A stretch of 64,000 bases of DNA. It comes from Minisyncoccota bacterium (GTDB taxonomy: Bacteria > Patescibacteriota > Minisyncoccia > Minisyncoccales > JAGOPM01). Below, piece by piece: positions 25,707-64,000 of the stretch; positions within the stretch are counted from its first letter, which is position 1, and each line of letters begins with the position of its first letter. The notes under the pieces are model-generated. The model ran no database searches and had not been told where the DNA came from. It worked only from the letters and a program-made list of their open reading frames with translations. The stretch is taken from positions 891,920 to 955,919 of the forward strand of contig JBAZJI010000001.1 in assembly GCA_041651395.1 (NCBI GenBank). The letters run 5' to 3'. The translations under genes and the position numbers were made by a program.

Positions 25707-25734
25707 ACCATCCGGGTAGCCGGATGGTTTTTTT
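25707..25734. terminator. Bidirectional intrinsic terminator shared by tyrS and the acidic-protein gene
   Basis: aaaaaaaccatccgg-gtag-ccggatggttttttt. Confidence 0.85.
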
Positions 25735-25933
25735 ATATATCGTCGTCGTGGTCGTTACTACTCTCTTCTTCCTCTTCTTTTTCCTCTAATTCTTCAGAAC
25801 CCTCTCCCAGATCTTCCTCGATACCTAAATCCTCCCCATCTTCTTCTGAGCCATATTCCGTATCGTCATCTTCTTCGTTAGTCATATCCCCCCAGAAAGA
25901 GTATATTTTATTTTCTTCTTCTTGGAAAAACAT
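25733..25933 (-). CDS. Hyper-acidic 66-aa protein (32 of 66 residues are D/E)
   Basis: The ORF is bracketed by a consensus promoter and a strong terminator. Sequence: MFFQEEENKIYSFWGDMTNEEDDDTEYGSEEDGEDLGIEEDLGEGSEELEEKEEEEESSNDHDDDI. No family recognised. Confidence 0.55.
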   Translation of the reverse strand: MFFQEEENKIYSFWGDMTNEEDDDTEYGSEEDGEDLGIEEDLGEGSEELEEKEEEEESSNDHDDDI

Positions 25934-27295: not shown

Positions 27296-28306
27296 TCAAA
27301 CTAAAGTTGAGCCGATTTTTTTCATTTTCAGGTAATCATAAGCTAAGTTCGTAACCTTTCTACCCCTGGCGGTTCTTTCTAAGAATCCTAATTGTAATAA
27401 ATAGGGTTCATAAATATCAATAATGCAATCCTCGTCCTCAATAGTGGCGGCGGCTAAAGTTTTTAAGCCAACCGGGCCACCATCAAAAGCCTTAATAATG
27501 GTGGTGAGGATTTTGCGATCCTCTGGTCCTAAGCCGCGCGAATCTATTTCCATAAAATCAAAAACTTCTTTTACAGTTTGCGGCTCAATAATATCCAGAT
27601 TGTTAACTTGGGCAAAATCCCGAACTCTTTTAAGCAAATGATTGGCAATCCTGGGGGTGGCCCGCGAGCTTTGGGCAATAAGTTGGGCAGCCTGAGCGGT
27701 AATAGTAATATTAAGTATTTGAGCGGACTTTAGAATTATTTCCGACAATTCTTGTTCTGCATAAGGGTTTAATTGAAAGGTAGCCCCAAATCTTGAGCGT
27801 AAAGGGGAGGAGAGGTTGGCAATACGGGTGGTGGCGGCAATAAGGGTAAATTTTGGGAGATTAATTTCCATATTTTGTGCCATTGGCCCGCTGCCTACTA
27901 TCAAATCAAGCTTGAAATCTTCCATAGCAGGATAGATTAATTCTTCGCAGATAGTATTAAGCCTATGGATTTCATCAATAAATAAAACATCCCCCTCGCT
28001 TAAATTGCTTAAAATACTAGCCAAATCTCCGCTTTTACGCAGTGCTGGCCCGGAAGTCACATGGATATTGACATCGCGTTGTTTTGCGATAATATAGGAG
28101 AGCGTAGTTTTACCTAGACCGGGATTGCCATAAAGGAGGATGTGGTCTAAAGCTTCAGATCTCTTCTTAGAGGCCCCTATCATTATTTGTAGGGTTTTTT
28201 TAACCTTTTCTTGGCCAATATAATCACTCCAATTTTTCGGTCTTAATTGGTTATCAAGAGCGGGGAGGGCTGATGTGTGGTTTTGGGTATTACTATTGAC
28301 AAACAT
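27296..28306 (-). CDS. ruvB: Holliday junction branch-migration helicase RuvB
   Basis: LRPKNWSDYIGQEKVK, Walker A LLYGNPGLGKTTL, Walker B VLFIDEIHRL, and TTRIANLSSPLRSRF. Confidence 0.96.
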   Translation of the reverse strand: MFVNSNTQNHTSALPALDNQLRPKNWSDYIGQEKVKKTLQIMIGASKKRSEALDHILLYGNPGLGKTTLSYIIAKQRDVNIHVTSGPALRKSGDLASILSNLSEGDVLFIDEIHRLNTICEELIYPAMEDFKLDLIVGSGPMAQNMEINLPKFTLIAATTRIANLSSPLRSRFGATFQLNPYAEQELSEIILKSAQILNITITAQAAQLIAQSSRATPRIANHLLKRVRDFAQVNNLDIIEPQTVKEVFDFMEIDSRGLGPEDRKILTTIIKAFDGGPVGLKTLAAATIEDEDCIIDIYEPYLLQLGFLERTARGRKVTNLAYDYLKMKKIGSTLV

Positions 28307-28324
28307 TATAATATAGGTTATAGT
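28296..28324 (+). promoter_or_regulatory. Candidate plus-strand promoter TTGACA-17-TATAGT (overlaps the first ruvB codons on the opposite strand)
   Basis: TTGACA at 28296-28301 and TATAGT at 28319-28324, with an exact 17-nt spacer. It points into the ruvB/pilB-like intergenic region. Confidence 0.4.
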
Positions 28325-28330
28325 ATGTCA

Positions 28331-28487
28331 GCAGCAAGAGAATTGCGGAAAGTGGCTCTTGAGCTGGGGAAATAGGGATTATTCTTAGAAATGGACGTTT
28401 TGGCTTCGGCTGGAGCGCTCCTCGGAATAATTTCGAACTTTGAGCTTCAAGCTAAAGTAAATCCCCCCAGCTCAAGGGCTGTTTTTT
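28331..28487 (+). ncRNA. Candidate structured small RNA (~155 nt), family unknown
   Basis: A 16-bp closing stem (28354-28369 / 28465-28480, with a perfect 12-bp core cttgagctgggg/ccccagctcaag) is followed by GTTTTTT. Inner helices lie at 28375-28384/28425-28434 and 28438-28457, with a C(UUCG)G hairpin at 28403-28410. The G-U pairs only work on the plus strand. Confidence 0.35.
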
Positions 28488-29784
28488 ATTGTCCCACAAC
28501 TCTTTGCACTTCCTCTAAGGAGGTTATACCCTCTATAACTTTTAAGATCCCGTCTTGGCGCATAGTTATTAAACCTTTATCTTGCGCCATTTTTTTAATT
28601 TTAATTGTAGAGTTTTCCTTGACGATATAATCCTTCATTTCATTATCCAAGAAAAACATTTCATAAAGTCCTATGCGGCCAATATATCCGGTGTTATTAC
28701 ACTTTGGGCAGCCCACAGGGTGGGGGAGTTTTAGCTCTTTGCTAAAATTTTTCGGTTCAATATTATGAGGTAATTCTTTAATCTCTTCTTTAAGTATATC
28801 GTATTCTTGGGTAGAGATTTTTTGTTTTTTGGCGCAAGCCGGGCAAATTTTTCGCGCTAAACGTTGAGCCACAACCAAATTAAGTGCCGGGGCGATATTT
28901 TGTGGCAAAGCCCCTAAAGCCATAAGACGATTAATAGCGCCAACGGAATCATTAGTGTGTAAAGTAGCTAAAACCAAATGCCCGGTCAGGGCAGCCTGGA
29001 TAGCCGTCTGGCAAGTTTCGTTGTCGCGGATTTCACCGACTAGGATAACATCAGGGTCTTGCCGAACAATGGCCTTCAAGCCTTCAGCAAAAGAATAACC
29101 TTTTTCCAAGTCTATTTGGGTTTGAGTAATATCCTCCAGGCGGTATTCGATTGGATCTTCAATAGTAATTATTTTGACCGTGGGGTCTTGGAGGCGTTTT
29201 AATATTGCATAAAGCGTGGTGGTTTTACCTGAGCCGGTCGGACCAGTGACTAAAATCAGCCCATTAGGCTGGGCAATGGCCTTTTCGAAATTTTTCAAAA
29301 TATCCGGGCGGATGCCTAAGTCAATTAAATCAAGAATATTTTCGGAGTTTAATATTCTAATAACAATTGAGTCGCCGTAATTAGAGGGGATAAGGGAGAC
29401 GCGGGCCTCAATCTGCTTTTTCCCGACACTTATAGCGAAGCGTCCATCCTGGGGTTTATTAGTTACGTTAAATTTAATACCGGAAAGAAGTTTGATGCGG
29501 GAATAAATAGTTTTGGCCACCTCTGGGTTTATTTGAGCTGCGTCTTGAAGTAGGCCATCTACTCGAAAGCGGATTTTTGAATCAGACTCTTCTGGCTCAA
29601 TATGGATATCGGAGACACGCAAGGCAATTGCCGTCGCCAAAAGCGAGGCCAGTAAGAGTGTGATATCATGGCCTTTTTCTGCTTCAAAAAAATTCTTAAA
29701 ATCACCAATACTACTAATAACAGAAGAGAGCCGGTTAAAATAATTCTCTTCTATAATAAACTCTTCGGTGATTTTTGAATTCAT
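28486..29784 (-). CDS. GspE/PilB-family secretion/type IV pilus assembly ATPase (short form)
   Basis: Walker A LVTGPTGSGKTTTLYA, ITIEDPIEY, Walker B ILVGEIRD, LTGHLVLATLHTN, and the tetracysteine cluster CPACAKK...CPKCNNTGYIGRIGLYE. Confidence 0.9.
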   Translation of the reverse strand: MNSKITEEFIIEENYFNRLSSVISSIGDFKNFFEAEKGHDITLLLASLLATAIALRVSDIHIEPEESDSKIRFRVDGLLQDAAQINPEVAKTIYSRIKLLSGIKFNVTNKPQDGRFAISVGKKQIEARVSLIPSNYGDSIVIRILNSENILDLIDLGIRPDILKNFEKAIAQPNGLILVTGPTGSGKTTTLYAILKRLQDPTVKIITIEDPIEYRLEDITQTQIDLEKGYSFAEGLKAIVRQDPDVILVGEIRDNETCQTAIQAALTGHLVLATLHTNDSVGAINRLMALGALPQNIAPALNLVVAQRLARKICPACAKKQKISTQEYDILKEEIKELPHNIEPKNFSKELKLPHPVGCPKCNNTGYIGRIGLYEMFFLDNEMKDYIVKENSTIKIKKMAQDKGLITMRQDGILKVIEGITSLEEVQRVVGQ

Positions 29785-30869
29785 AATATATTAGTGATTA
29801 TTGTTTTGGCTTGGTTTTCGTCTTTATTACTTATACTGCAAAGTAAAACATTTCCCTTAGTCTCTCCGCCCAAAATTCGCCACGCATTTTTGATTTTTTC
29901 CGGTTTTTGGAAGTAGAGAAGTATATCAAAGCTGTCTTTATTATTAGGTTTTTGCCACATTATGGCAAATCCCGGAAAATTGAACCTGGGATTTTGTTTG
30001 ATTAAGGTTGCCACCTCAGCCACATTTTTTACATTTGAGCCCGTTGCCAAAAAGTCTTCCGCACTTATGTAAAATAGAGGAATATTTGATTTTAGGTCAA
30101 TTTCCATGTTTTGCATTGCCCGAGTCACAAATCTTGTCCTCTGGTTGCGCTCCTCCGCTTGGGCTAAATCGGCAAAGGCTGGTTTTAAGGTTGGCTCTTC
30201 GTCTGGGCTGGGGGAATTTTTTTTCCCGGCTAAAAATTCCAATATCTCTAACAGCTTTTCTTGACTGCCGCCTTTTTGAGCAAAACAAACCGCACTCTCT
30301 TTTAAGAGATTAATAGCTTTTTCGTCGAGTAAAGTTTTATCTAAAAATGAAGCAATAATGATTTGGGCTAAAGGGTTATCTTTAAGAATGTTAACTTGCC
30401 CAAAGGTTTCTGCCTCTAAATTATTATTAATATTAATAATAGGTTTCTCGTAAAAAAGTTTGAAATTATCTTCGGCAAAATCCTCCAAAGTGGCTAAATT
30501 ATCAACCCCGATTGTGATTAATAAATCAAATTCCGGCGGTTGGATTTCATTTGCCAAGGAGATATCTTCGGGAGAAATAGAACCGTTTTTGTAATCAATA
30601 AAAATATTGAGCTTATCCCTGTCTTTTTCATAATATATCTGGGAAATGTCGCGTCCGCTGGTATTGATAGTCAGGTGCGCCTTGCATTCCGAGGATTCCA
30701 AGGGTGGTAGAATATTTTCTTTTACAATATTTGCATTCTTACCCATATTATTTAGAATATGGGCAAGCGCTAAGGCCGCATTAAAGCTTTCCGGCTCATT
30801 GGGGTTAGCCGGAACGATTAGGATAGTCTCTGAGCGCGAGATGAGGTTTTTTATCCTCTCCTCCTGCAT
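29781..30869 (-). CDS. Degenerate DHH-family (NrnA-like) protein with catalytic motifs substituted
   Basis: TILIVPANPNEPESFNAALALAHILNNMGK aligns by eye to the NrnA H-x-x-PDGDAxGS motif. PIININNNLEAETFG aligns to IDHHxxNxxFG (DHH replaced by NNN). ATGA overlap with the PilB-like gene. Confidence 0.45.
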   Translation of the reverse strand: MQEERIKNLISRSETILIVPANPNEPESFNAALALAHILNNMGKNANIVKENILPPLESSECKAHLTINTSGRDISQIYYEKDRDKLNIFIDYKNGSISPEDISLANEIQPPEFDLLITIGVDNLATLEDFAEDNFKLFYEKPIININNNLEAETFGQVNILKDNPLAQIIIASFLDKTLLDEKAINLLKESAVCFAQKGGSQEKLLEILEFLAGKKNSPSPDEEPTLKPAFADLAQAEERNQRTRFVTRAMQNMEIDLKSNIPLFYISAEDFLATGSNVKNVAEVATLIKQNPRFNFPGFAIMWQKPNNKDSFDILLYFQKPEKIKNAWRILGGETKGNVLLCSISNKDENQAKTIITNIL

Positions 30870-30885
30870 AAATCCCTGAAATTAT

Positions 30886-31365
30886 ATGGCAAAAAAGGCC
30901 AAAAGTCAATTAAAGAAAAAAAAGGAATTTTCTTCCAAATCTTTAGCTCAGACTAAAAAAATAGCTGAGCGGCTGTTAAGAGAGGTAATCCAAGATAAAC
31001 CAAAGGCTGGGGCGGCTTGTTTGGCTCTTTTTGGAGATTTGGGTAGCGGAAAAACTACTTTCGTTAAAAGCTTAGCTAAGAAATTGGGGGTAAAACAAAA
31101 TATAAACAGCCCGACTTTTGTAATTTTTCGAAAATATTTAATTCCCGCCAAAAGGGGTTTCTCCCATCTTTTCCATTTTGACTGCTATCGGTTAAAAACG
31201 GCCCAAGAGGCGGAAGCTTTGGGATTTTCCGAAATAATTTCTAATCCAAGTAATTTTGTGGTTTTGGAGTGGCCGGAGAATATCCAGTCATTATTGCCGC
31301 CCTCCTGCAAACAAGCTTTTTTTGAGTATATCGATCCCAAGACAAGAAAGATTACTATTCATTAA
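30886..31365 (+). CDS. tsaE: tRNA t6A37 biosynthesis ATPase TsaE
   Basis: LFGDLGSGKTTFVK, SPTFVI, HFDCYRL and VVLEWPE motifs. Confidence 0.9.
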   Translation: MAKKAKSQLKKKKEFSSKSLAQTKKIAERLLREVIQDKPKAGAACLALFGDLGSGKTTFVKSLAKKLGVKQNINSPTFVIFRKYLIPAKRGFSHLFHFDCYRLKTAQEAEALGFSEIISNPSNFVVLEWPENIQSLLPPSCKQAFFEYIDPKTRKITIH

Positions 31366-49235: not shown

Positions 49236-50915
49236 ATGCAAAGAAAAAAGGCAGTTCTTTGCTTTTTTGCTGTATTGTTTGCATTCTTGGCAACGATTGT
49301 TTTTAGTGTGTCTGCGGCTACTAAAAAACCACTCGCAACCAAATCGGCAACAAGTCAGCAAAATGAAGGAACGGTTACAAATCAAAGCGGGGGAGGTATG
49401 GCTTCTCCAATAAATTGTTTTGCATACTTTAAGCCTGATACTGTACTTATCAGTCTTAGTGCTTCCTCTCCTGATTATAAAGTCGGCGATGAGATTAAAT
49501 TAACCGCCAAAGTCAGCAATGCAAACAATTTTCCTATCGCTCAAGGTAATTTGTTCATACAGATTTATCGCCAATCGGGTGAAGGTGGTGCCCCGGATTA
49601 TCTAGTTGATGAATTTTTTGTCCAAGATGTAGCGCTTAATGCCCGCGAAATCCGTAATATTGATTTTGCTTGGCGAGCCCCCTCGGGAATTTCTGGCGGA
49701 AAATATACCGTTGGAGCATTTTTTACTCTGAATAAAAGTATTTATATTTCCGGAGCTCCATTTAATGAAAAAGCTTATGATAAGGCCTTTACGACTTTTA
49801 ATATCCGCTCCATTGATGACGCCAGCGAGGTAGCGGTAGACAAGAAAAATATTATTTTTAACGGCCAGACATATAATTATTTTTCCTTAATTCCGGTAGT
49901 TAAGGCTGGCCAGCCGATCGAAGTTGTTTCTACAGCCAAAAATCTTTCCAATAAATCCCAAGAAATAAAGATATCAAAAAAAATATATTTTTGGGATAAT
50001 TTAAGCGAGGACGCGATAGTCCAAAAAGAAACAGAAAAGGCTACGCTAAATGCCGGCGGTTCGCTGAATTTGTATTATTCGACCAAAGGTCTTAATAGTG
50101 GGGCTTATTTGTATGAATTAGTGGTCGAAAGCCAGAGTGGAGTTAAATCTATTGCCAAAGTCCGTTTTCAAGTAAAAGGAGACAAGCCTGTGGCCCATAT
50201 TAAGTTTTTAGCCTTAAGTAGTTGGCCGATTAAAAAGGATCAAAACATGTTTATCTTTAATTGTTTTGAGTCCATTGTCCCGGGGGATAGGGTAGATGGA
50301 AAGGTTTATTTAACTTTGCGCGATGCCTCTGACAATAGCGTTTTGCAGCGGGTAGAATATAGTGGTCCAATCGGTTATAGCCCTATTGCTATTAAAAACG
50401 ATTTTAAGGCGGACAAGGAAAGGTATGCGGTAATTTTGGAATCACAAATTTACGATCGGGGTGGAAATTTACTCGACCAAGAAACGATAAAATATGATTG
50501 TTCATCTTTTGATAATGAGGTCCGGGATGTGAAAATAGAAGTCAACGAAAAGGAAAACACAATCAAGGCTTTCGGAGTTAATTCTTGCGGCTCGCAGGTA
50601 AAGGGGAGAATTAGTTTAGAAGTGATAAAAATCAGTGGAGCCAACAAGAAGATATTTTTGGAGAAGGATTTTCAAGGCGACGAATTGTCAAAAAATATTT
50701 CTTTGAAAGGTGGGCAAACCTACAAAATTACGGCAAAAGTTAATGCGGTTTTGCGCTCCATTGAATATAAATCGACCAAGCCAAATTATGATTGGATTTG
50801 GTGGGTCGTCGGCTTTGGTCTTATTGCTTTAATTATATTTTTCTTTATTAAGCGCCAAATGGACAAAGCTTCCGCGGCTCCTGTCCAGTTTCATCAATCA
50901 ACATTCCAACAATGA
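49236..50915 (+). CDS. Surface protein A1: signal peptide, multi-domain beta-rich ectodomain (CARDB/Ig-like by eye), C-terminal TM anchor
   Basis: N-terminal VLCFFAVLFAFLATIVFSVSA. C-terminal WIWWVVGFGLIALIIFFFIKRQ. Clear paralog of 60910-62481, for example LFIQIYRQ..YLVDEFFVQD..FAWRAPSGISGGKY versus IVVQIYRL..YLLDEFVLEK..FRWQIPNGLNSGAY. Confidence 0.75.
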   Translation: MQRKKAVLCFFAVLFAFLATIVFSVSAATKKPLATKSATSQQNEGTVTNQSGGGMASPINCFAYFKPDTVLISLSASSPDYKVGDEIKLTAKVSNANNFPIAQGNLFIQIYRQSGEGGAPDYLVDEFFVQDVALNAREIRNIDFAWRAPSGISGGKYTVGAFFTLNKSIYISGAPFNEKAYDKAFTTFNIRSIDDASEVAVDKKNIIFNGQTYNYFSLIPVVKAGQPIEVVSTAKNLSNKSQEIKISKKIYFWDNLSEDAIVQKETEKATLNAGGSLNLYYSTKGLNSGAYLYELVVESQSGVKSIAKVRFQVKGDKPVAHIKFLALSSWPIKKDQNMFIFNCFESIVPGDRVDGKVYLTLRDASDNSVLQRVEYSGPIGYSPIAIKNDFKADKERYAVILESQIYDRGGNLLDQETIKYDCSSFDNEVRDVKIEVNEKENTIKAFGVNSCGSQVKGRISLEVIKISGANKKIFLEKDFQGDELSKNISLKGGQTYKITAKVNAVLRSIEYKSTKPNYDWIWWVVGFGLIALIIFFFIKRQMDKASAAPVQFHQSTFQQ

Positions 50916-53900
50916 AAAGGCATATTTTCTTATTTTTAACTCTTGCGCTTTTGGCTGTATTTTTGGATATGGCTGCTCCGCAGATTATCAAAATTAAAGC
51001 CGCGCAAACTTTTTATGCTTGTCGCAAAGCCCCTTCAACCGGCTGCGGCTCTTTGACGGCTCAAGATATTGATGATTGTCAAAGGCAAGTTCAAGGGACT
51101 TGTTATACTGACCCAAATTGCAATGGCGCCTGTAACGCAACTTTGGATCGTAATGTTTATGCTTGCGTCGGGGGAAATAATTCCTGTGCGCTCTTAGGTC
51201 AAACTACCGATTCTTTGGCCACCTGCCAATCCAAAGTTGGCAAGCCGTGTTTTGAGGATTCTAATTGTTCCGGATCGTGCAGCTCTGGAAGTGGTGCGGG
51301 TTGTAACAAGAATTTTTATTGCGATTCGGGCGAAACAAATGCTAATTGTCCCAGTGATTGCCCATGCAACAATAATGCTGTTTGCGAAGCATATTTAGGG
51401 GAAACGGATAAAAATTGTTCCAGCGATTGCGGTTGCAATAATAATGGGAATTGCGAATCGCAGAGGGGGGAAGATAAAACTAATTGTGCCGCCGATTGTG
51501 ACCGGGGTATAGGCTGTAATAATAATGGCCGCTGCGAAACCGGGGAAAATTCTACAAATTGTCCGAACGACTGTAAGTCCGGCGATTATAGTAAGAATGT
51601 TTACGCATGCGAAACCGGAAAGTGCGTGTATAAGGCTAATTGTATGAGCTACACAGGAATCAGCTGTTATCCCGACCCCGATTGTTACGGGGCGTGCAGT
51701 GGCTCTGGGGCGAGGGTTTTATACGGGTGCCGCGATAATAGCTGTATTGATTTGGGTGCGGCAACGACCGATACATTGCAACAATGTCAGCAGCGGTGGG
51801 GCTTTGCGTGTTTTGAAAACATGGATTCCTGTCGGGCGTCTTGTGGTCCGGCTAAAAAAACTTTTTATTATTGCCCGGCAAGCGGGGGAGCATCTTGCCA
51901 GCCAACTAATGATTTTTCCGATGCGACAGATTGCAGCCAGACGCTTTGGTTAAAAAATATCGCCAAAAATGGGATTTGGTGCCAAGAATCCCAATTTAAG
52001 GGTGCCTGTGATTATGATTGTTCGAAAAATGCTTGTAATAATGACAGAACATGTCAGCCGCAAAATGGCGAATCTAGGCAAAATTGCGTTGACTGTATTT
52101 GCAATAAAGATTTTAATTGTGAATTTTCTGCGGGTGAGAATTATTCTAATTGCCCCAGTGATTGTCCGTGTAATTTTAATGGCACTTGTGAGACATATTT
52201 AGGGGAAAATTCCACAAATTGCATTCAAGATTGTTCATGTAATAAGAATAATATTTGCGAATCCCAGAGAGGGGAAAGCTATTCGAATTGTTCAAGCGAT
52301 TGCAAATATACCTCAGGGAAAATTATTGTGAATACTTTGCCCTTTGAGCTTAATAATCCCCCCGGAGGCTTGATGATGAATGGCGAGCTTGCAGATCTGG
52401 GAGGAATTGCCGTGTTGGACGTGGGTTTTATAATTTATCCCGAAGGAAGCACGCCGATAATGAGCGATCCGAACAATACTTATAGTATTGTTCGTGCAAA
52501 TGTTCTCAATGGGGCGGCGCGCTTTGCCCTTCCTGCGCAAAATGCATTTTTTTACGGTTTTCCAATATTACCTAAGTTTCAAGGGAAAAATCGCCTTTGC
52601 TATAAGGCGTATGCAATGGATGCCAATGGCGGGACTATTGATAAAAATCAAACAGTGGCATTTGGAGGCGAGGTTTGTTTTACCGTACCCCAAAAACAAG
52701 AGATTGTCTGTGGCAACGGCAGTTGTGAGAGCGGAGAAAGCTATCAAAATTGTCCTGCGGATTGCCCCAAATCATCAGTTTGCGGGGATGGTAAATGTGA
52801 AAGCGATGAAATCCTTAATTGTCCTAAAGATTGTAATTCGGCAGTCTGTGCGATACATACCGCGGGAGTTGGAGGCTCAACGAATGCTTATGGGTTTTCT
52901 TTAAGAGGGAGGGTTGATGATCCGAACAATACGATATATAAAGATGCAATTTTTGGATTTGAAATTTATAACTTGCGCAACGGGAAGAATATTTTTTCTG
53001 GCGATTACCAAAATGTGGCGGTAACTTGTGATGCTACAGGGGGGAGGGATATCCCGAAGTATTGCGATCTTTCTCAAAAAGAGTTTGTCGTATTTTTAAC
53101 TAATGGTGTGCTGTTAAATAGCTCAATGCTTTCCAATGCGGCGCTGGGCGATACCGTTTGTGCGAGGGCTTTTATGTCTTCTTCGGTCAAAGATTATAGG
53201 AAAATTGAAAATAGGATATACGCGAATTCTTCCGAGGATATATGTTGGGTTTTGAGCGATAAGCAAGTCAGTTGGGATAAATATGGTTTTAGCACTTGCG
53301 GTTCAAAGTGTTCCAATGTCGAGCGCCCTGGTTGTTCGGGAACATATACTCCCCCAGTTCAAGAAAGACAGATGAATTGCGTTAATTCCGGTTTAGGCAC
53401 GGCGGCAGGAGTAGTGGAGATTTGCTCTAGTGTTATTCCGGCTGCCGGCTGTAATAGGGGAGATGTATTGATTGCGCTTGAGCCTTCCGATGGAGCAACT
53501 GTAAATTATGCCAAAGTTTATTTAACACTTTATAGCGGCCGAGGGATTAAGTTTATTTCTGATTATTCTGATTCTGATTACAAGGCGCAAGTATCCGGGG
53601 AAAATGTTTTTTGGGATGTTGGTAAATTTTCTCAAAAAGTTCAGCTGAGGTTTCAAGTCAGTTTTCCCGATGGCCAAATCAACCAAATGGTTAATTATAC
53701 TTTCGGGAAAAATAAAGTTTATCACGGGTGTAATGCCGCGGGCTGTAATGGTGAAGCTACCATTTACGATATGATTTTGAGCCCGAAGTGCGGAGTTGAT
53801 ATTTGCAGGGTAGACGGGATTTGTGATGTGGCGGTCGGAGAAACTTTGGAAAACTGTTCTAGTGACTGCAAAAATCAAGTTTGCAATTCTGATGGTAAAT

Positions 53901-56650
53901 GCGATCTTGGCAAGGGAGAAACTTTTCTTAATTGTCCGAAAGATTGTGGGCAATTTAAGAATTTTTCCATAATCACTTTGGATGCCAATGATGTCAGTGA
54001 TCACTCTGCCACTATCCGGGGAACAATCCCGGGTATGGGTGATGTTAAGACCGCCCAGTATTATCTCTCTTATTATATTTGCGACGAGAAGGCTAGAGAT
54101 AATTTGCATTTAGGACAAAGCTATATTGCTGCTTTCGGGCAGACGAAGGCCGGAGGGCTTTTTGAAGCCAAACTCGATTATCTTTTCCCCGGGATGAAGT
54201 ATTGTTTCGAGGCCTCGGCTTATGATGTGGACAATAAAAATAATATGCTCACCGGCGGGCAAAAAGAGTTTACGACTTTAGCTCCTTCTAGCGGTATTAA
54301 TTGTCCGAATTTATCTTCTCCGATTAATAGCACTAAAATTCAAACCCTGACTCCTGAACTTAAATGGACAAGCGTCTCTGGTGCCACTTATTATCGTTAT
54401 GCGATTTTTAAGGATTTTTGGAACATGTCTGCACCCTCTGAGGCCAATGGTGTTATTATTCCTAATGCCAAAGTGGCGCCCAATTCTCTCATTTGGGCTC
54501 GGCAATATATTTGGGCGGTTAATGCTTGTAAAGACAGTACAATGAAAGAATGCTCTGGTTGGTGCATGCCTTCGTCTTTTATTACCGGAGATTTATTGGC
54601 CGCGCCTAAAATTATTAGGCCCAGTGGCGACATTACCTCTACTCAACCTTTGATTGAATGGGAATATGTTTCTGGCGGGAATTATTATGAGTGGGTCATA
54701 GAGAGGGAAAGTCCCGCTTTAGGTATTCCCAAGGTAGCCGAAAGCGGACTGACCAAAGAAAAAACCGCTTCAGCCACCAAGAATTTGGCCTTGGGAAATT
54801 ATTTGATAAAAGTTCGCGCCTGCTCTGACCAGCAAATGGTGATTTGTGGCGAGTATGCAGAGGTCAAATTTTCAGTTAAAACCGATGAGCAACTTAAGGC
54901 CAAATGCGGCACATTGCGGATTTCTAGTGACAATAAAAAGGAAGGGTATTTTATGATGTGTGCCAACGGTAAAACTTGGCCTTGTGATGATGGTGCCCTT
55001 TCTCCCGATTATCCTATTAATAATAAGAGCGATTATTTATACGACAAGGCGGTTGATTTAGGCTTAACACCCGGAGAATTCCAAGCAGACTATTATGTTA
55101 ATACTGCCCAATATGATATCTATCTGCAAGACAAAGTAAATGGTACTAAATATCCCACTAATTCCGCTCTACCTTCCAATCATAAAGAATATAAGTTGAT
55201 AGTCGATCCGTTAAAAGTCCCCAATAATACTTTAGTCGAAAAGAGTCGGGCTGGGGGAGGAACATATAATATCCCAGCTGATATGGCTCAAGACGTGCTT
55301 TCCCTTTACCAATCGGCTACTCCGGCAATTGAGGCTAAAGTTGCTGATCAGCTGCCGATTTATGATGGTGACAGAGAGCTTGAATGGAATTTGGATGAAA
55401 TGTTTTTCGGATTCATTATGGATAATCCGTTATTTAAGCCAGGATTAACCGTCGATGGAGGAAATTACTTTGAAATCAAAAAAGATTCCGGTAGTGGGGA
55501 AATTTCGGTTACTATCAAAGATAGTGCCTTGGGCGGGTCAGAATTGGATAAAATGCAGTTGTCGGTAGCTATTCCTCAGCTTAATACTTTTCAAACTATA
55601 AATAATCTGTGGTATAACCAAGGCTGTCTCGACGCTCAAGAGGTGCCGCAAGTTTTAGAATTTACCATCGGTCCGCCGGTGGAAGATTGCAAAGCGCTTA
55701 ATTGTGCCAGCTTACAGTGCGCCGTGGAGCCAACCTGTTCCTATGAGGGCGGCGAGAGTGTTGCAGCCAGTAAAGATCAGAAGACTGAATATAAATGGAA
55801 TCTTTATCCAGATACTCCAGCTAAGGGCCGATCTTTAATTTGCCAATATTCTGGAATAAGCCTGACCATGCCGCCTTGCGATTCAAATGCCCCACCAAAA
55901 CAAGTTTTTTCTTTGACGGAAATAGATTATTGCTCTTATCCTGTGATTCTTAATTTCAGCTGGAAGCCAAGCCAAGAAACATCTCATACGCAAATAGCCT
56001 ATACCATTAATATCGAGAGGCAAACCAAGGATGGTTGGGAACAGATCATGAGTTATGAAAATAATGACCCTGTTACGGGCGGATCAAATGTAAAAAGCAT
56101 CAAAGTATTTGGAAAGGGTTTGGCTGTTGGGAGTAAAGGGGAGATTGATTTCACAAACAGAGATGATTCTGATAGGGACAATTTAAGAGCTTCGGTAATT
56201 GTTAAAGCGGAAAATGGGTTAACTTCGGAATCTTCAGACCCAGTTGAATTTATTTTACCGGCCAAGCCGCGGCCCATTCCAGTTATCCCTGTTAGCGGTC
56301 CTAAAAAATATGTGGCTAATCCGGAAACGCGCCAAATTACATTTTATGGTGAGCTAAATGCCGACCAGCAGAGTATTGGTATGAGCGCCCCCGATGCTAA
56401 TTCTTGGTATTGGTATAAGGGTTTGGGGGAAGCTGTTATAGCCGAAAGAGGGGAGCCAATTTACGGTGATGAGGATGCTATTATTGGATATAAGCCGGAA
56501 AAAACTTACCCCTTCAGACTGCGCGAACCGATAGAAGTCCGTTTGGAATTTACACACTCCGATACTGTCGATAACAAAAATTGTTCTGCGCCCATCAAGC
56601 TTATTGAGGGGACGGATGTTATCTTTAGGAGCAAAGGCCCGCAAATATAA
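50912..56650 (+). CDS. Giant secreted Cys-rich protein B1 (1912 aa) with several repeat families
   Basis: Signal peptide. Five copies of a ~45-aa six-Cys module. Twelve copies of a ~22-aa C-x4-C-x(4-7)-[GE]-x(3-4)-C-x2-DC repeat in four blocks (~51302-51574, 52034-52303, ~52707-52845, ~53797-53950), each block followed by an Ig/FN3-like domain. Two W..V.GA.YY.Y modules. The C-terminal ~900 aa is collinear with B2. Confidence 0.8.
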   Translation: MKRHIFLFLTLALLAVFLDMAAPQIIKIKAAQTFYACRKAPSTGCGSLTAQDIDDCQRQVQGTCYTDPNCNGACNATLDRNVYACVGGNNSCALLGQTTDSLATCQSKVGKPCFEDSNCSGSCSSGSGAGCNKNFYCDSGETNANCPSDCPCNNNAVCEAYLGETDKNCSSDCGCNNNGNCESQRGEDKTNCAADCDRGIGCNNNGRCETGENSTNCPNDCKSGDYSKNVYACETGKCVYKANCMSYTGISCYPDPDCYGACSGSGARVLYGCRDNSCIDLGAATTDTLQQCQQRWGFACFENMDSCRASCGPAKKTFYYCPASGGASCQPTNDFSDATDCSQTLWLKNIAKNGIWCQESQFKGACDYDCSKNACNNDRTCQPQNGESRQNCVDCICNKDFNCEFSAGENYSNCPSDCPCNFNGTCETYLGENSTNCIQDCSCNKNNICESQRGESYSNCSSDCKYTSGKIIVNTLPFELNNPPGGLMMNGELADLGGIAVLDVGFIIYPEGSTPIMSDPNNTYSIVRANVLNGAARFALPAQNAFFYGFPILPKFQGKNRLCYKAYAMDANGGTIDKNQTVAFGGEVCFTVPQKQEIVCGNGSCESGESYQNCPADCPKSSVCGDGKCESDEILNCPKDCNSAVCAIHTAGVGGSTNAYGFSLRGRVDDPNNTIYKDAIFGFEIYNLRNGKNIFSGDYQNVAVTCDATGGRDIPKYCDLSQKEFVVFLTNGVLLNSSMLSNAALGDTVCARAFMSSSVKDYRKIENRIYANSSEDICWVLSDKQVSWDKYGFSTCGSKCSNVERPGCSGTYTPPVQERQMNCVNSGLGTAAGVVEICSSVIPAAGCNRGDVLIALEPSDGATVNYAKVYLTLYSGRGIKFISDYSDSDYKAQVSGENVFWDVGKFSQKVQLRFQVSFPDGQINQMVNYTFGKNKVYHGCNAAGCNGEATIYDMILSPKCGVDICRVDGICDVAVGETLENCSSDCKNQVCNSDGKCDLGKGETFLNCPKDCGQFKNFSIITLDANDVSDHSATIRGTIPGMGDVKTAQYYLSYYICDEKARDNLHLGQSYIAAFGQTKAGGLFEAKLDYLFPGMKYCFEASAYDVDNKNNMLTGGQKEFTTLAPSSGINCPNLSSPINSTKIQTLTPELKWTSVSGATYYRYAIFKDFWNMSAPSEANGVIIPNAKVAPNSLIWARQYIWAVNACKDSTMKECSGWCMPSSFITGDLLAAPKIIRPSGDITSTQPLIEWEYVSGGNYYEWVIERESPALGIPKVAESGLTKEKTASATKNLALGNYLIKVRACSDQQMVICGEYAEVKFSVKTDEQLKAKCGTLRISSDNKKEGYFMMCANGKTWPCDDGALSPDYPINNKSDYLYDKAVDLGLTPGEFQADYYVNTAQYDIYLQDKVNGTKYPTNSALPSNHKEYKLIVDPLKVPNNTLVEKSRAGGGTYNIPADMAQDVLSLYQSATPAIEAKVADQLPIYDGDRELEWNLDEMFFGFIMDNPLFKPGLTVDGGNYFEIKKDSGSGEISVTIKDSALGGSELDKMQLSVAIPQLNTFQTINNLWYNQGCLDAQEVPQVLEFTIGPPVEDCKALNCASLQCAVEPTCSYEGGESVAASKDQKTEYKWNLYPDTPAKGRSLICQYSGISLTMPPCDSNAPPKQVFSLTEIDYCSYPVILNFSWKPSQETSHTQIAYTINIERQTKDGWEQIMSYENNDPVTGGSNVKSIKVFGKGLAVGSKGEIDFTNRDDSDRDNLRASVIVKAENGLTSESSDPVEFILPAKPRPIPVIPVSGPKKYVANPETRQITFYGELNADQQSIGMSAPDANSWYWYKGLGEAVIAERGEPIYGDEDAIIGYKPEKTYPFRLREPIEVRLEFTHSDTVDNKNCSAPIKLIEGTDVIFRSKGPQI

Positions 56651-56657
56651 TAAAGTT

Positions 56658-59600
56658 ATGAGCCAGAAGTCTAAATTTGTAATATTTTCTATTATTAGTC
56701 TATTTATCATAGGAGTAATCAGTTTGGCTTTAGCTCAAACCGGTGAAGGCTCTTTGCAGGTAACGGCTAAAATGGCCTGCAATTCTCAGACGTTTGCCAA
56801 GGTGCAAATTCAGATAAAATGTCTTTCCGGCTCAAAAATTGATTGCAAGAAAGAGAATATTTTGAAGTTTAGCAATGTTTCGGCCAATGTTACTTTGCAG
56901 GATGGCACGCCCTATCCTAGCGTCAGTTCGCAGGCCAATTCTGGCGGACAGACAATGTATGAGGACATTTGGAAAAAAATAATTTTTGCCAATGATAACG
57001 ATTCCAGATATTTTTCTTTTCTGACTCCTTTATGTGGCAAGCGCTCGGCTGAACTTACGTATTATGATTTATTGCAGCAAAAAAATATTACCGTTCCCAT
57101 AAAAATAAATAGTCAGGCCTCCCTTGTCTGTTGGCAATGTCCGAGCGGTGAAGAATACAGTACGGTGATCGGCAACGGTTTATCTGCCGGTGGGGCAAAT
57201 ACTGCAACAACGAGTACTCCGGAAAATCCTAGCTTAAATGAAGGCGTAAAAATGCCCTACCTTTATTGTCCTTCCGGTTTAGAGCAGTATTGCCGCCCCA
57301 GCATTGAATTATTTGCAAGCGAAGAGGAGTGTGAGGCTAATATGGCGCAATTTATTCCGCCCTCTATCTCTGGCTCGAAATGTTTTAGTTTAGAAAATGC
57401 TCAGGCTTGCAACACAGCGTGTCAAAATTTTTCTCAGCCTTTTATTCCAACAAGCACACCCCCAAACAACGCTTGTGCCAAGGAAGGGGAGAAGGTAGGC
57501 CAATGCCAAAACCGGCAGTGCTGTGAGGGTTTAGTGCCGCGCCCGCCGCTGGGCCCGGTTTGCCAGGCTTGTGATGTTTGCGAGGCCTTCACTTGCGTGA
57601 AGCCCGATACCCCTCCTACCATCGGTAATGTTAAATGGTGGTATTGCCAAAGTGATGGCAACGGGCAATGTCAACTGAGCGTGGAAAATTTTTCTGAACC
57701 ACAAGCCTGCCTGGATAAATATGCCAGCCAAATTTGTTTTCCTAATGTGAGCGGCTTAGAATCGCAAATGCAAGCCACTTGTAATAACTCGTGCAATACT
57801 TTAGTTAATGGATCTTTATCAGTTCACCCTTTTATTAGCAGCGACGCTTCCTGCAATAAGATTATTAAATTTCAAATAACCTGTTTGCCCGGGAAAAAAA
57901 TAATCTGTTCGGGTATTGATTTGCAATACGAATATTCTCCGGCTGCAGAGTCTTATGTTAGTTCCAAACCTTCCGCCGAGCGATTTGATTTTGGCTATTC
58001 GACTGGTGGCATTATCCATAGCTGGCTATGGCGTGGCATAGAAATAAAGGCCACCAGTTCAGATTATATCATCACTATGAGGCCGGGATCATTTACCAGC
58101 ACTTATGCCGCGACAATTTATCATATTAATCCGACAACCAAAGAGCGTTTGACTACTAGAATTAATATGCCTTGGGTGGAAAAATGTGCTACTGGAGATG
58201 GTGGGATAACAGTGGTTAATCCTGATGATGGGAAAAATAGCCCTTCTTGCGGTAATGCCAGTTGTGAGCCGGCTTTAGGTGAAAATAATTCTTCCTGCCC
58301 TCAAGATTGCCAACAGTGCAATTTGGATAAAATTTGCCAAGCAGCTAGAGGAGAAACAATTGATAATTGTGCTGATTGCGCCAACGGTCAAACATTGGAA
58401 TTTTCCGTAGCCAGCAAGCCCGCCTCAGACATTTCCGAGCAATCAATGGTGCTTAACGGCGAGCTTATGGGGCTAGGCGAAAATAAAAATGTTCTTTACG
58501 GGTTTCAATATTATCCTTGTGCCTTTCCCGAGATGCTCTCGCAGACAAAGTGGCAAACCGCTACTTCGCCCGTGGCCTTTAGCTTTGATTTATTAGAGCT
58601 TCCACCCGATACGGAAATTTGTTTTAAGGCACTAGCTCAAGCCTCAAGCACGGTATTACAAGGCGATTTATTAAAGGCAAAAACTCTATCCAGTAAATCA
58701 GGATTAGTGTGCCCAATGCCGCTTAGCCCCAAGATCGATGAGAATATTACTTCGCTTTCTACTCAACTTAGTTGGTCAATGGTTAATGGGGGGAAATATT
58801 ATCAGTATGCCCTTTATGAAACGACTTTAGGCGGGGCTATGATAAAAGAAGGGGATACTAATAGTAATGCCGTCAATGTCGGGCCTTTGGTTTGGGGCAA
58901 ACATTATTATTGGCGAGTTAATGCCTGCGCTGATTCGACTTTGAAAAATTGTTCTAATTGGTGTCCGGCTTGGCATTTCATAACCGGGGTAATTTTGAAT
59001 CCGCCCGTTATTACTAGCCCATCTTCAACTTCCATTTCTGAGAAAAAACCGTTGTTCTCTTGGGATTATGTATCTGGGGCGCAATATTACGAATATGTTT
59101 TATTGAGCGGTTCGACAGAAATTGTTCGGGACACCATTTCTTCCAATCGGGCCTACCCAGCTAACGAATTGCCTTTGGGCGATTATATTTTGAATGTCCG
59201 GGCTTGCCGCGACCAACAAAAACAAAATTGCAGCGAATATGCAGAGCGCGCCTTTTCTTTGAAAGATGAAGAGACCATTCTGGCTAATTGCAGCGCATTA
59301 AGGATTGGCAGCAAAAAATTCGCCTCCGGGGATCCAAATTATATTTATTTGGAAAAATGTTCAGCAGCCAATTGCCCTTCGCCTTATAAGGAACCTAATA
59401 TTGATCTGAAGGCGAGTTATGTTGTAAATCCAGAATATAAAATTTATTTATTAGACGAAAACCGGGGAATAAAATATGAATCCGGGTCTAGCGAGCCGCT
59501 GCCGCAAGGTCAGACGTTGCGCTTAGTTATCGAACCATTAGTATTGCCAAGCACTAATTTTGGCAATGGCGGCTACAATAATACTGGCGGGCAAAAAATA

Positions 59601-60905
59601 GTTTATTCGGATAACGCCCAAGCCGACTTTGAAAATAATGAAAAATTAATTATTAGTCAGGCTTACGATGATAATGGCGTGCCATTCCAATTAGGTGCCG
59701 TGGCAGATAATCCAGTTAATTTGCCAGATTTTCATGTTTCGCTGAGTAGCCATTTTGAATTAGTTAAAAAGAGCGCCGGGATTTATGTCAAAGCTGCTAA
59801 CCCAACTCTTTCCGAACTTAGCCCCGAGGCTGAAATAAATGTTACCGTTCCTCAGCTCAATTCTTATCAAACTGCCGATAATATTTATTTGAATCAAGGC
59901 TGTATTGCCGCCAGCGCCCCGCAAAAACTCCTTTTTAATATTAAAGCTTTGCAACAGTTAAAAGTTTCCGCCAAATACGAGGGTCGGGGATATGTGAAAA
60001 TTGATGCGGACCCGGCAAAGAGTAATTTGGAATATAAAATGAAGTGCTTTTCGACCTCGCAGGGTAAGCAGGTGGAATTAAGTGTTAGCCAGCAAAGCGA
60101 GGCATCAAGATTTTTGGTGTCAGTAGCCACCGGAATTACTTTGGATAGTAGTGTGCGTTGCGAGTATTCCGTGACCGATCCCGATATTAACGTGGACTTT
60201 TTCGGTTCAATCGAATTTGAAGTTAAGGATATTATGCCAGAAAAGCCGGCGACTCCGATATTTAAGTCGACCAGCGTTGATTATTGCCAATATCCGGCCA
60301 AAATCACTTTTAATTGGGAAAGCCCCTCGCCGCAAAAAGGATATAATTTGGTAGTTTACCAGCAGGAAAATCTTTTAACCGATCATAAAGAGGGAACGGC
60401 TGTGCCTATGGCTGTTAAAAATATTCCCGGAGACGGTGTGGAAAATAAGTTGCGTTTTACCGGCTCGCCTGAGCGGTATTTTGCCGTTGTTTCCGTTCAA
60501 GGAGACAATGGGCTTTGGTCAGAGCCTTCTGATCCTTTCGAATTTTCCATTGAACGCCGCCCCGCCGCCCAACCAATGATAGAGGTGGAGCGCGTGAACA
60601 CGGTTAGGAAGTATATTGAATTCAAGGGTTTCGGAAAAGAATTAATCGATGAAGCTGGCAAACCAGTTGAGGTAACCGTTCCGCCTTCGCAGCTTTGGGA
60701 GTGGTATAGCGATCCGCAACAAGTTGCCCCGGAAAAGGGGATTAATGAAGGCTCGGCATATTTCCGGATTCCTTTTGAAAAGGCTCAGGATATTTATTTG
60801 AAATTGCGCTTTCATGACGAGGATTTGAACGTCTCCTGTGATTATGTCACTACTACAAAATTCAATATTAATGTAGAATTTAAGAATACGGGAACCACAT
60901 TCTAA
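56658..60905 (+). CDS. Giant secreted Cys-rich protein B2 (1415 aa), paralog of B1
   Basis: ATG at 56658 gives MSQKSKFVIFSIISLFIIGVISLALAQ. It shares with B1 the six-Cys modules, 2 CxxDC-type repeats (~58246-58385), an Ig-like domain, 2 YY.Y modules (~58720-59270) and the C-terminal region (PQLN[ST][FY]QT..NQGC, [IV]DYC.YP). Confidence 0.8.
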   Translation: MSQKSKFVIFSIISLFIIGVISLALAQTGEGSLQVTAKMACNSQTFAKVQIQIKCLSGSKIDCKKENILKFSNVSANVTLQDGTPYPSVSSQANSGGQTMYEDIWKKIIFANDNDSRYFSFLTPLCGKRSAELTYYDLLQQKNITVPIKINSQASLVCWQCPSGEEYSTVIGNGLSAGGANTATTSTPENPSLNEGVKMPYLYCPSGLEQYCRPSIELFASEEECEANMAQFIPPSISGSKCFSLENAQACNTACQNFSQPFIPTSTPPNNACAKEGEKVGQCQNRQCCEGLVPRPPLGPVCQACDVCEAFTCVKPDTPPTIGNVKWWYCQSDGNGQCQLSVENFSEPQACLDKYASQICFPNVSGLESQMQATCNNSCNTLVNGSLSVHPFISSDASCNKIIKFQITCLPGKKIICSGIDLQYEYSPAAESYVSSKPSAERFDFGYSTGGIIHSWLWRGIEIKATSSDYIITMRPGSFTSTYAATIYHINPTTKERLTTRINMPWVEKCATGDGGITVVNPDDGKNSPSCGNASCEPALGENNSSCPQDCQQCNLDKICQAARGETIDNCADCANGQTLEFSVASKPASDISEQSMVLNGELMGLGENKNVLYGFQYYPCAFPEMLSQTKWQTATSPVAFSFDLLELPPDTEICFKALAQASSTVLQGDLLKAKTLSSKSGLVCPMPLSPKIDENITSLSTQLSWSMVNGGKYYQYALYETTLGGAMIKEGDTNSNAVNVGPLVWGKHYYWRVNACADSTLKNCSNWCPAWHFITGVILNPPVITSPSSTSISEKKPLFSWDYVSGAQYYEYVLLSGSTEIVRDTISSNRAYPANELPLGDYILNVRACRDQQKQNCSEYAERAFSLKDEETILANCSALRIGSKKFASGDPNYIYLEKCSAANCPSPYKEPNIDLKASYVVNPEYKIYLLDENRGIKYESGSSEPLPQGQTLRLVIEPLVLPSTNFGNGGYNNTGGQKIVYSDNAQADFENNEKLIISQAYDDNGVPFQLGAVADNPVNLPDFHVSLSSHFELVKKSAGIYVKAANPTLSELSPEAEINVTVPQLNSYQTADNIYLNQGCIAASAPQKLLFNIKALQQLKVSAKYEGRGYVKIDADPAKSNLEYKMKCFSTSQGKQVELSVSQQSEASRFLVSVATGITLDSSVRCEYSVTDPDINVDFFGSIEFEVKDIMPEKPATPIFKSTSVDYCQYPAKITFNWESPSPQKGYNLVVYQQENLLTDHKEGTAVPMAVKNIPGDGVENKLRFTGSPERYFAVVSVQGDNGLWSEPSDPFEFSIERRPAAQPMIEVERVNTVRKYIEFKGFGKELIDEAGKPVEVTVPPSQLWEWYSDPQQVAPEKGINEGSAYFRIPFEKAQDIYLKLRFHDEDLNVSCDYVTTTKFNINVEFKNTGTTF

Positions 60906-62481: not shown

Positions 62482-64000
62482 ACGGGAAAAAAATATTTTA
62501 TTTTTTAATATCGGCCGCCTTCCTCTTTGCCACCCAGGTGGTTTGGGCTGCAACCTGTGATTGTCCGAAATTTGGGACGCCCACTTCTCCCTATATCAAA
62601 GGGGAGGGATGCGAATCGTCTATTGCGGCGGATAATACCTGCGCTTCTTATACTGACGGTGTTTTTAGTATAAAATATTACGTCGATCCGGCCGCCAAGG
62701 GGTATACAAATTGTGATGGCCCCGTCACTACGGAAAGTATTTATTTTCACCTCAATAAAAGCGGTTCGCCCAGGATAAATTTACCTCCGCCATATTTTGA
62801 TGGCCTGCGCTATAACCAGCAATCCATTCCCGGGCCCTTGCCCTATCAGCAGGGCGAGAAGGCAACCTATTCGACCACAACTTGTCTGACCGAGGGCTAC
62901 TATGATATTTACGGGGGAATTTGCGAAAACGCTTATGGCCGTTGCGATGGGAATAAAATTAATTCCAGTTGTGGCTATAAACATGTCGGTTATTTGTATG
63001 TCAGTAAAGAACAGGAAAAAGCCGGGTGTAATGCTGGGAATAGTTGTGGTAATGGGAAATTGGATAGTGGTGAGGAGTGCGATCCTTCGGTTTCTGGCAC
63101 AACGTGCTGCCTTTCAACGTGCAAAAAGGATACAAATTGCGGCGGCCGCTGCGGGGACGGGATTTTGCAATTATCCAATGGGGAGCAATGCGAGACCGGG
63201 TATGCTTGCACGGGATATGGCTCAGCCACGGAATGTAATCTTTCAACTTGTAAATGTGTGATTCCGGCGAGTAAGTGCGGCAATGGCGCCCTTGATAGTG
63301 GTGAGGAGTGCGATCCATCAATTTCGGGCACAACTTGTTGTACAAACCAATGCAAATATGACACTTCAGCGTTATGTTTGTGCGGCAATAAAAAACTGGA
63401 CGCAGGTGAGGATTGCGACTCTTCAGCTAATGCTTCATGTTCTGCCGGGTATGACTGCCAAACTTGCAAATGCGTGCAAAAGCCGACAGTGACCTGCCAA
63501 GCGAGCTTAGATGTCGTATGTAATAGCGGCCTTAATGATGGTTGTAGCAGTGGTGGTGGGACAGGGGGTGGCAGCGATCCGGGCTGCGGCGGGACAGGGA
63601 CGTCAAATACCTACGCCGATATTGTTATTGCAATGGACAGGACCGGTTCAATGCAGTCAGTCGATTATTCGCGCGTCCGCTCCGAGCTGAAGAATTTTAT
63701 CGACAAGCTTTCCAAAATAAGCGCTAATGTCCGGATAGGGATAGTAACTTTCCCGTATCGGTATAATGACAACCAACCGACTTGCCGGCTTTCATTCCCG
63801 CAGGCTATAGAGCCTACTAATGATTTCAATAAGCTTAAAAATTATGTCGACCAAGTGACCTACGTTGGTGAGGTTAAAGAAAATTTATACTGGACTGATG
63901 TTAATGCCAATAAAAGCCCTTGCGAACAGTCTACTACCAATTTAGGCGGGGCAATTATGAGTGCCTCTTCTATTCTTGATAAAGGTAGCGCTAAAAAGAA
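62478..64000 (+). CDS. Secreted Cys-rich-repeat + von Willebrand factor A domain protein (3'-truncated by the window; absent from the supplied ORF track)
   Basis: Manual translation from ATG 62478 (ATGA overlap with the A2 stop) runs 507 codons with no stop to the window end. It has a signal peptide MNGKKIFYFLISAAFLFATQVVWA, four CG[ND][GK]xLxxGExC[DE] repeats, a Gly-rich linker, then the vWA start ADIVIAMDRTGSM (MIDAS DxTxS) ..VRIGIVTF. Confidence 0.8.
   Translation, partial: MNGKKIFYFLISAAFLFATQVVWAATCDCPKFGTPTSPYIKGEGCESSIAADNTCASYTDGVFSIKYYVDPAAKGYTNCDGPVTTESIYFHLNKSGSPRINLPPPYFDGLRYNQQSIPGPLPYQQGEKATYSTTTCLTEGYYDIYGGICENAYGRCDGNKINSSCGYKHVGYLYVSKEQEKAGCNAGNSCGNGKLDSGEECDPSVSGTTCCLSTCKKDTNCGGRCGDGILQLSNGEQCETGYACTGYGSATECNLSTCKCVIPASKCGNGALDSGEECDPSISGTTCCTNQCKYDTSALCLCGNKKLDAGEDCDSSANASCSAGYDCQTCKCVQKPTVTCQASLDVVCNSGLNDGCSSGGGTGGGSDPGCGGTGTSNTYADIVIAMDRTGSMQSVDYSRVRSELKNFIDKLSKISANVRIGIVTFPYRYNDNQPTCRLSFPQAIEPTNDFNKLKNYVDQVTYVGEVKENLYWTDVNANKSPCEQSTTNLGGAIMSASSILDKGSAKK
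63045..63475 (+). repeat. Intragenic tandem duplication, 231-bp (77-codon) unit, encoding paired Cys-rich repeats
   Basis: CGNG motif codons start at 63045 and 63276 (231 bp apart). Secondary motifs start at 63150 and 63381. An exact 23-bp repeat gatagtggtgaggagtgcgatcc occurs at 63063-63085 and 63294-63316. Confidence 0.8.

Follow-up and report, generated by a model that had tools for sequence, protein, structure and literature searches.

Comparative genomics keeps adding orphan structured non-coding RNAs (ncRNAs) to Rfam. Bacteria of the candidate phyla radiation (CPR, or Patescibacteria) account for a large share of bacterial diversity, with genomes of about 1 Mb and almost no spare DNA, and to our knowledge next to nothing is known about their ncRNAs. 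We analyzed a stretch of 64,000 nucleotides (nt) from a Minisyncoccota bacterium (assembly GCA_041651395.1, contig JBAZJI010000001.1, positions 891,920 to 955,919), hereafter called the window, in whose coordinates all positions are given. The spacer between ruvB and a gene for a T2SSE (GspE/PilB-like) ATPase appears to hold a gene for a structured small RNA (sRNA). Like other orphan structured bacterial ncRNAs, this candidate is a stand-alone gene of ~150 nt with a covarying multi-helix fold, a sigma-70 promoter, a U-tract terminator and a distribution within one lineage; it differs from them in matching no Rfam 15 model and in having a CPR host. In outline, the nearest known family is 6S RNA (RF00013 and relatives), which it resembles in its size, its strong promoter, the long helix joining its 5' and 3' ends and its long second arm. 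It also resembles cis-antisense RNAs and bidirectional terminators: its gene points towards the ATPase gene, any read-through mRNA would be its full complement, the terminator lies over the stop codon, and an A-tract and a U-tract flank the stem. Likewise, the packaging RNA (pRNA) of phage phi29, a three-way junction with a long 5'/3' helix that serves an ATPase, is encoded beside the gene of an oligomeric ATPase.

We consider it likely that positions 28331-28487 of the plus strand form a separately transcribed gene for a structured ncRNA of ~155 nt, its ends predicted from the signals described below, which represents an undescribed family in Paceibacteria (Parcubacteria, CPR). A near-consensus sigma-70 promoter would fire away from ruvB, and the transcript would fold into a three-way junction closed by the helix P1, which brings the 5' and 3' ends together; on its 3' side P1 would lead into a U-tract, so that transcription would end where the convergent ATPase gene has its stop codon. 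The sRNA interpretation proposed in a preliminary description of this DNA is supported by our analysis; expression itself we infer from sequence signals.

A consensus scan confirmed the proposed TTGACA-17-TATAGT promoter at 28296-28324 with 11 of 12 consensus matches, and transcription would start at about 28331. Sites of that quality number seven in the 64 kb, both strands together. At least three of the remaining near-consensus sites directly precede genes, as at 30909 on the minus strand, ahead of the operon that contains the ATPase gene, which argues that near-consensus sites are used in the host genome. The strength of the promoter suggests that the RNA would be abundant. Pairing of the A-rich 5' foot with the 3' U-tail within the 22-bp P1 helix suggests that it would also be stable.

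Folding of the plus strand between 28330 and 28490 gave a minimum free energy (MFE) of -65.9 kcal/mol (z = -5.55), which none of 200 shuffled sequences equalled, and the MFE structure is the three-way junction that had been recognized from the sequence. The closing stem, described earlier as 16 bp long, is present, and its length had been understated: it comprises 22 bp (28348-28369/28465-28486), or 23 in the MFE structure. The second helix, the 3'-side hairpin and the C(UUCG)G cap at 28403-28410 all reappear in the consensus structure, the first two at 28375-28385/28424-28434 and 28437-28458. The self-complementary GGAGCGCTCC (28412-28421), previously taken for a hairpin of its own, turned out to be the 3' strand of P2b/P2c, and the palindrome is not conserved in homologues. 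All 54 consensus pairs are standard in the window RNA.

Homologues were collected by four routes. The first examined loci of relatives with RuvB 55-84% identical; every locus among these relatives with T2SSE upstream of ruvB has a spacer of 169-251 nt, except L051 at 812 nt, and the RNA was present in all 11 T2SSE-to-ruvB spacers examined. The second, a degenerate DNA pattern run over one genome per GTDB species, returned 40 loci, 11 of which were strong plus-strand covariance-model hits, mostly new CPR loci; the other ~29, mostly from non-CPR taxa, were not confirmed by the covariance model, which set chance hits in other phyla apart. The third, a second model built from 17 sequences, also found L059 (97 bits) and the divergent L060 (53 bits). 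The fourth, a metagenome scan anchored on the ATPase protein, yielded five distant loci (38-47% identity) and no clear homologue. L014 is the same contig as L010. The final alignment holds 18 distinct sequences with 39-94% nucleotide identity to the window, labelled Paceibacterota, Parcubacteria, Nealsonbacteria, 'Patescibacteria group' and, for three bins, 'uncultured Candidatus Saccharibacteria'; L051 has a RuvB annotated as Staskawiczbacteria. The RuvB encoded in the window is identical to one annotated from a Candidatus Paceibacterota.

Covariance-model scans show that the RNA is single-copy in the window and at each locus, where it is always antisense to the T2SSE gene and just downstream of it. 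Its other neighbour is ruvB in all but two cases: in L042 it is the gene of a 265-aa protein, LTD-like by eye, and in L051 (1946-2757) a GIY-YIG gene intervenes within the 812-nt spacer, which contains the RNA (110 bits). A Falkowbacteria ruvB locus that has no ATPase gene (L052) has no RNA. L054 carries, at 2572-2754 on its minus strand, an element that folds into a four-way junction closed by a stem of 23 bp (MFE -80.9 kcal/mol, z = -9.4), downstream of a T2SSE gene 47% identical to that of the window and on the same antisense strand. This element scores 29 bits with the covariance model, mostly from the stem, and the contig ends short of the promoter region; it may be distantly related to the RNA or have arisen independently as an analogue.

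Base pairing is well preserved among the homologues. In the final alignment 93.8% of pair cells are standard, and 36 of the 54 pairs show compensatory double changes (136 cells). On none of five measures was the alignment matched in 500 shuffles of its columns, and sliding the 3' partners by 1-3 columns lowered pairing to 40-58%. Orthologous spacers, to which the preliminary description had pointed, keep the closing stem and show compensatory changes in all four helices, with double changes in 16/22 pairs of P1, 7/13 of P2a-b, 6/11 of P2c and 7/8 of P3. Furthermore, free folding of the final alignment by RNAalifold returned the same three-way junction with 52 pairs, 35 of them with compensatory changes, and an independent MAFFT alignment of eight sequences gave the same architecture.

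Wobble pairs identify the functional strand. The alignment contains 149 G.U/U.G cells versus 13 A.C/C.A cells; G.U pairs become mismatches on the opposite strand, and the functional strand is therefore the plus strand of the window. The same strand had been favoured earlier on the basis of four G-U pairs, a count too low, since the window RNA has 13. It is thus highly improbable that the structure belongs to a minus-strand mRNA, as the 3' untranslated region (UTR) of the ATPase gene or the 5' UTR of ruvB, or that it is a palindrome acting at the DNA level. The minus strand between 28330 and 28490 also beats its shuffles (MFE -45.1 kcal/mol, z = -2.96) and there are weak reverse-strand covariance-model hits, but its fold is ~21 kcal/mol weaker, the promoter and U-tract are conserved on the plus strand, and RNA pairing is what the compensatory changes point to. 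The upper part of P1 (GCTGGGG; GTTGGAGG in L051/L053) resembles Chi-like recombination hotspots, but changes there are matched by compensating ones on the opposite strand, as pairing in an RNA would predict.

The promoter is conserved together with the RNA. It lies upstream in 17/18 loci as TTGACA, a spacing of 16-17 nt and TATAAT, TATAGT, TAAAAT, TAGAAT or similar. Between the -10 box and the start of P1 lie 4 to 52 nt, indicating that the 5' leader is dispensable and that the transcripts of several species must begin at P1. The position of the -35 box relative to ruvB shifts likewise. In the closest group it overlaps codons 2-4, where RuvB begins M-x-V-N, and in L053 and L060 it overlaps the ruvB ATG itself (overlap with the start of ruvB was recorded in the window at 28296-28306 and in L001, L004, L005, L007, L008, L053 and L060); it lies in the 5' flank in L059 and further away in L009 and L010. 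In L042 the promoter is kept though the divergent neighbour is not ruvB. The concern that TTGACA might arise fortuitously from ruvB codons is not borne out by a promoter kept at varying offsets, including at a locus lacking ruvB. Conservation at shifting offsets from the ATG suggests the reverse, that the promoter appears to constrain the RuvB N-terminus.

At the 3' end, the features of an intrinsic terminator are present: the 3' strand of P1 runs straight into UUUUUU at 28482-28487, so that the U-tract immediately follows the closing stem, as first described. All 18 homologues have a U-tract, in most sequences directly after P1 and in L051, L059 and L060 after a short extra hairpin. L060 has a canonical terminator hairpin in addition to a short P1, showing that P1 belongs to the RNA itself and is not just a stem for termination. 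The terminator touches the ATPase stop codon in the closer relatives, and the RNA lies 18-290 nt from that codon in L051, L059 and L060.

We compared the RNA with known families. Against Rfam 15 (4227 families) the 64-kb window gave nothing at the gathering threshold. At E <= 10, searches with the 401-nt region and, among homologues, with eight entire loci and two short stretches gave sub-threshold hits to unrelated families only, mostly eukaryotic long non-coding RNA, microRNA and nematode sRNA models and one Staphylococcus sRNA, and these were inconsistent between homologues; in the eight diverse homologous loci no Rfam hit overlapped the RNA. The earlier statement that the family is not recognizable therefore held, the Rfam scan giving no credible match. 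Likewise, ARAGORN found no transfer RNA or transfer-messenger RNA in the window, and no description of this RNA, nor of such RNAs in CPR bacteria, was found in full-text searches of the literature. As no Rfam family matches and the tests for known families failed, we treat the RNA as a new family of stand-alone structured bacterial sRNA.

A divergent 6S-type RNA, which would sequester sigma-70 RNA polymerase by mimicking an open promoter, is the candidate closest in outline. 6S homologues can escape Rfam models, and the size, the strong promoter of its own and the long closing stem all fit, as does, loosely, the topology of stem, junction and long arm with a 3'-side hairpin. The RNA lacks the large central bubble of about 10 or more unpaired nt on the 5' side that marks 6S RNA, however, and its 5' junction strand J1/2 is short and variable (3-11 nt), lying between the covarying helices P1 and P2a, the latter of which follows it directly; no 6S-family hit appeared even at E <= 10. 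We therefore regard a 6S function as improbable.

Other candidates were also rejected. The signal recognition particle (SRP, 4.5S) RNA has a GNRA apical loop where this RNA has a UNCG or variable one, and no SRP-family hit was obtained at E <= 10; Parcubacteria, according to Nelson and Stegen (2015, PMC4508563), have neither ffh nor ffs. A riboswitch or other cis leader does not fit a plus strand on which only the antisense of the ATPase gene lies downstream. A small protein gene was rejected since the open reading frames (ORFs) of the spacer (32, 21 and 79 aa) are not conserved; the 79-aa ORF is on the plus strand with a non-conserved start, the ATG at 28391 being absent in most homologues. 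No reverse transcriptase gene is found among the neighbours, as a retron msr-msd would require, and a repeat or mobile element, such as a repetitive extragenic palindrome or a miniature inverted-repeat transposable element, is at odds with a copy number of one both in the window and at each locus. Nothing similar was found in viral contigs or phage records that would indicate a phage origin. A second spacer considered as an RNA candidate (62751-62989, G+C 0.48) gave no structure signal.

What is conserved in the RNA is its paired shape. Sequence and length vary in the junction strands, the P2 bulge, P3 and all hairpin loops, and there is almost no conserved single-stranded sequence. Constraint falls on the top of P1 (G-Y-U-G-G-G/A-G with C-C/U-C-C-A-R-C, with a G-C pair swapped to A-U in L051/L053), on a small helix formed from YAG..GG and CCUCG (A-U, G-C, bulge, G-C, G.U), and on the stem below the UNCG cap, with a near-invariant G.U and G-C and two more wobble-rich pairs. 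Conserved helices and wobbles next to so little conserved single strand suggest that the RNA acts through its shape, probably bound by protein, and not by seed pairing. We tentatively propose, from comparative sequence analysis, that its primary function would be that of a trans-acting protein-binding RNA.

Somewhat less probably, the element is mainly a cis device, in which a convergent promoter, a bidirectional terminator and an antisense RNA throttle or process the ATPase-to-ruvB mRNA, for example through RNase III, with no partner in trans. At every locus the RNA is found either between the same genes or at the 3' end of the ATPase gene, it has no conserved single-stranded seed, and the mRNA strand has a U-rich run opposite the A-rich 5' foot of P1. 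Furthermore, between 30909 and 26012 we found no near-consensus minus-strand promoter, and no conserved promoter of ruvB is visible, so that transcription of ruvB-yebC-ruvC probably comes from the ATPase operon by read-through. A leaderless ruvB promoter within the spacer of the sRNA promoter was considered and rejected: there is no suitably placed hexamer, and the expected -10 differs in L004 (read by eye). For antisense action, then, the orientation and the promoter are observed, and the read-through mRNA is what we infer from the lack of a ruvB promoter.

Several observations do not fit a device acting only in cis. Antisense action has no need of the conserved pair identities and wobbles in P2 and the P1 top, which, unlike those of cis-antisense RNAs and bidirectional terminators, are conserved on one strand only. 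In a genome with a median gap of 23 nt a simple hairpin would be enough for termination, whereas the 'loop' here is a conserved two-armed structure of ~95 nt, and L060 separates P1 from the terminator. RNA and promoter persist in L042, where ruvB is gone, and the RNA stands apart from the ATPase stop codon in L051, L059 and L060. Alongside the proposed trans function, the convergent promoter, the A-tract, stem and U-tract and the full antisense complementarity would probably still damp or process read-through from the ATPase gene into ruvB.

Linkage to the ATPase gene raises another explanation, in which the RNA would serve the neighbouring hexameric T2SSE ATPase as a cofactor or regulator, in the manner of the packaging RNA of phi29. 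The RNA co-occurs strictly with the ATPase gene, even after rearrangements on the ruvB side (L042, L051), and its overall shape fits. With only two rearranged loci, however, the linkage could be chance; the RNA has neither homology nor sequence or covariance-model similarity to the phage pRNA family, its context is not that of a phage, and the searches of viral contigs and phage records described above apply here too. We know of no precedent for RNA-dependent T2SSE ATPases, and the comparison remains an analogy. We consider such a role unlikely.

Several points weigh against our main interpretation. The sample represents one clade. Linkage to a single locus is strict, with no unlinked copy among the genome hits, and fits action in cis as well as in trans. 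L051 carries the RNA without a recognizable TTGACA/TATAAT promoter; here another promoter may be in use, or the RNA may be on its way to loss. Pair counts come from alignments that had been fitted to the model and so lean towards structure, a bias from which the MAFFT-based result is free. Transcript ends and abundance are predictions.

Table 1. Predicted elements of the sRNA gene and its flanking genes in the window.
Feature	Position	Strand	Remarks
-35 hexamer TTGACA	28296..28301	+	overlaps ruvB codons 2-4 (opposite strand); kept in 17/18 loci
-10 hexamer TATAGT, 17-nt spacer	28319..28324	+	TAnAAT-like at 16-17 nt in homologues
5' leader, non-conserved, with small hairpin (28334-28337/28343-28346)	28331..28346	+	from folding
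P1 5' strand, A-rich foot, G-C-rich top GCUGGGG	28348..28369	+	pairs with 28465-28486
J1/2 junction strand AAAUA	28370..28374	+	from alignments; variable among homologues
P2 arm	28375..28434	+	most conserved nucleotides (YAG..GG / CCUCG; GGYU-loop-GRCU with wobble pairs)
P2a	28375-28385/28424-28434	+	from consensus structure
P2b	A28387-U28422, G28388-C28421, G28393-C28420, G28394.U28419	+	bulge 28389-28392
P2c	28396-28404/28409-28417	+	cap UUCG 28405-28408
P3 hairpin	28437..28458	+	sequence variable; longer hairpin instead in L022/L033
P1 3' strand, CCCCAGC... to start of U-tract	28465..28486	+	from covariation
U-tract, intrinsic terminator	28482..28487	+	pairs with 5' A-rich foot; overlaps ATPase stop codon (28486-28488)
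ruvB	27296..28306	-	divergent from sRNA promoter; read-through across sRNA gene probably reaches it
T2SSE (GspE/PilB-like) ATPase gene	28486..29784	-	convergent with sRNA; Pfam PF00437, E = 7e-120

The spacer between ruvB and the ATPase gene (28307-28485) measures 179 nt, and the last bases of the U-tract help form the ATPase stop codon. Calling the spacer unusually long was fair against the median gap in the window, although at least one other spacer is longer. It is also richer in G+C than its surroundings, as had been said, but only marginally (0.436, with 0.455 in the RNA core and 0.414 in the window). The neighbours across homologous loci are T2SSE, RuvB, YebC, RuvC, TsaE and TyrRS.

Directly upstream of the ATPase gene lies a gene for a 362-aa protein (29781-30869, minus strand), which has no sequence match in Pfam, NCBIfam or PDB; to the eye the N-terminus looks like that of a degenerate DHH phosphoesterase, a likeness that no tool supports. 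Most related loci have a gene in the same position, overlapping the start of the ATPase gene, and since it is missing in L009 it is not strictly linked to the RNA. On the other side, ruvC is followed by a 66-aa ORF (25733-25933, minus strand) with no family match. It is served by the sole perfect 12/12 promoter in the window, TTGACA-16-TATAAT at ~26012 on the minus strand, and a small ORF of 34-76 aa occupies its position in most related loci. Elsewhere in the window, two very large adjacent plus-strand ORFs of 1912 aa (50912-56650) and 1433 aa (56604-60905) overlap by 47 nt. A Shine-Dalgarno-like motif precedes just 4 of the 37 long genes in the window, and several genes have a TATAAT box 7-17 nt ahead of the ATG (for example 24506 and 6923 on the plus strand and 30869 on the minus strand), which together suggests that mRNAs with no leader or a very short one are frequent in the host genome.

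New structured RNA motifs turn up regularly; this one is strongly supported and comes from compact genomes that have barely been explored. The layout of the locus is itself compact, with the -35 box inside the first RuvB codons and the terminator inside the ATPase stop codon. A structured RNA of ~140 nt that is kept by purifying selection and has a near-consensus promoter is probably not superfluous where intergenic gaps have a median of 23 nt. The outcome is a testable RNA family with an alignment, a covariance model, a strand and predicted ends, which can be used to search metatranscriptomes and to look for a partner. By analogy with phi29, and with little confidence, the RNA could be a subunit of a Paceibacteria-specific ribonucleoprotein built around the T2SSE/PilB-like hexameric ATPase, a cellular counterpart of the phage pRNA-ATPase. 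If this were true, an RNA would take part in a pilus, secretion or DNA-uptake motor of ultra-small, SRP-poor bacteria.

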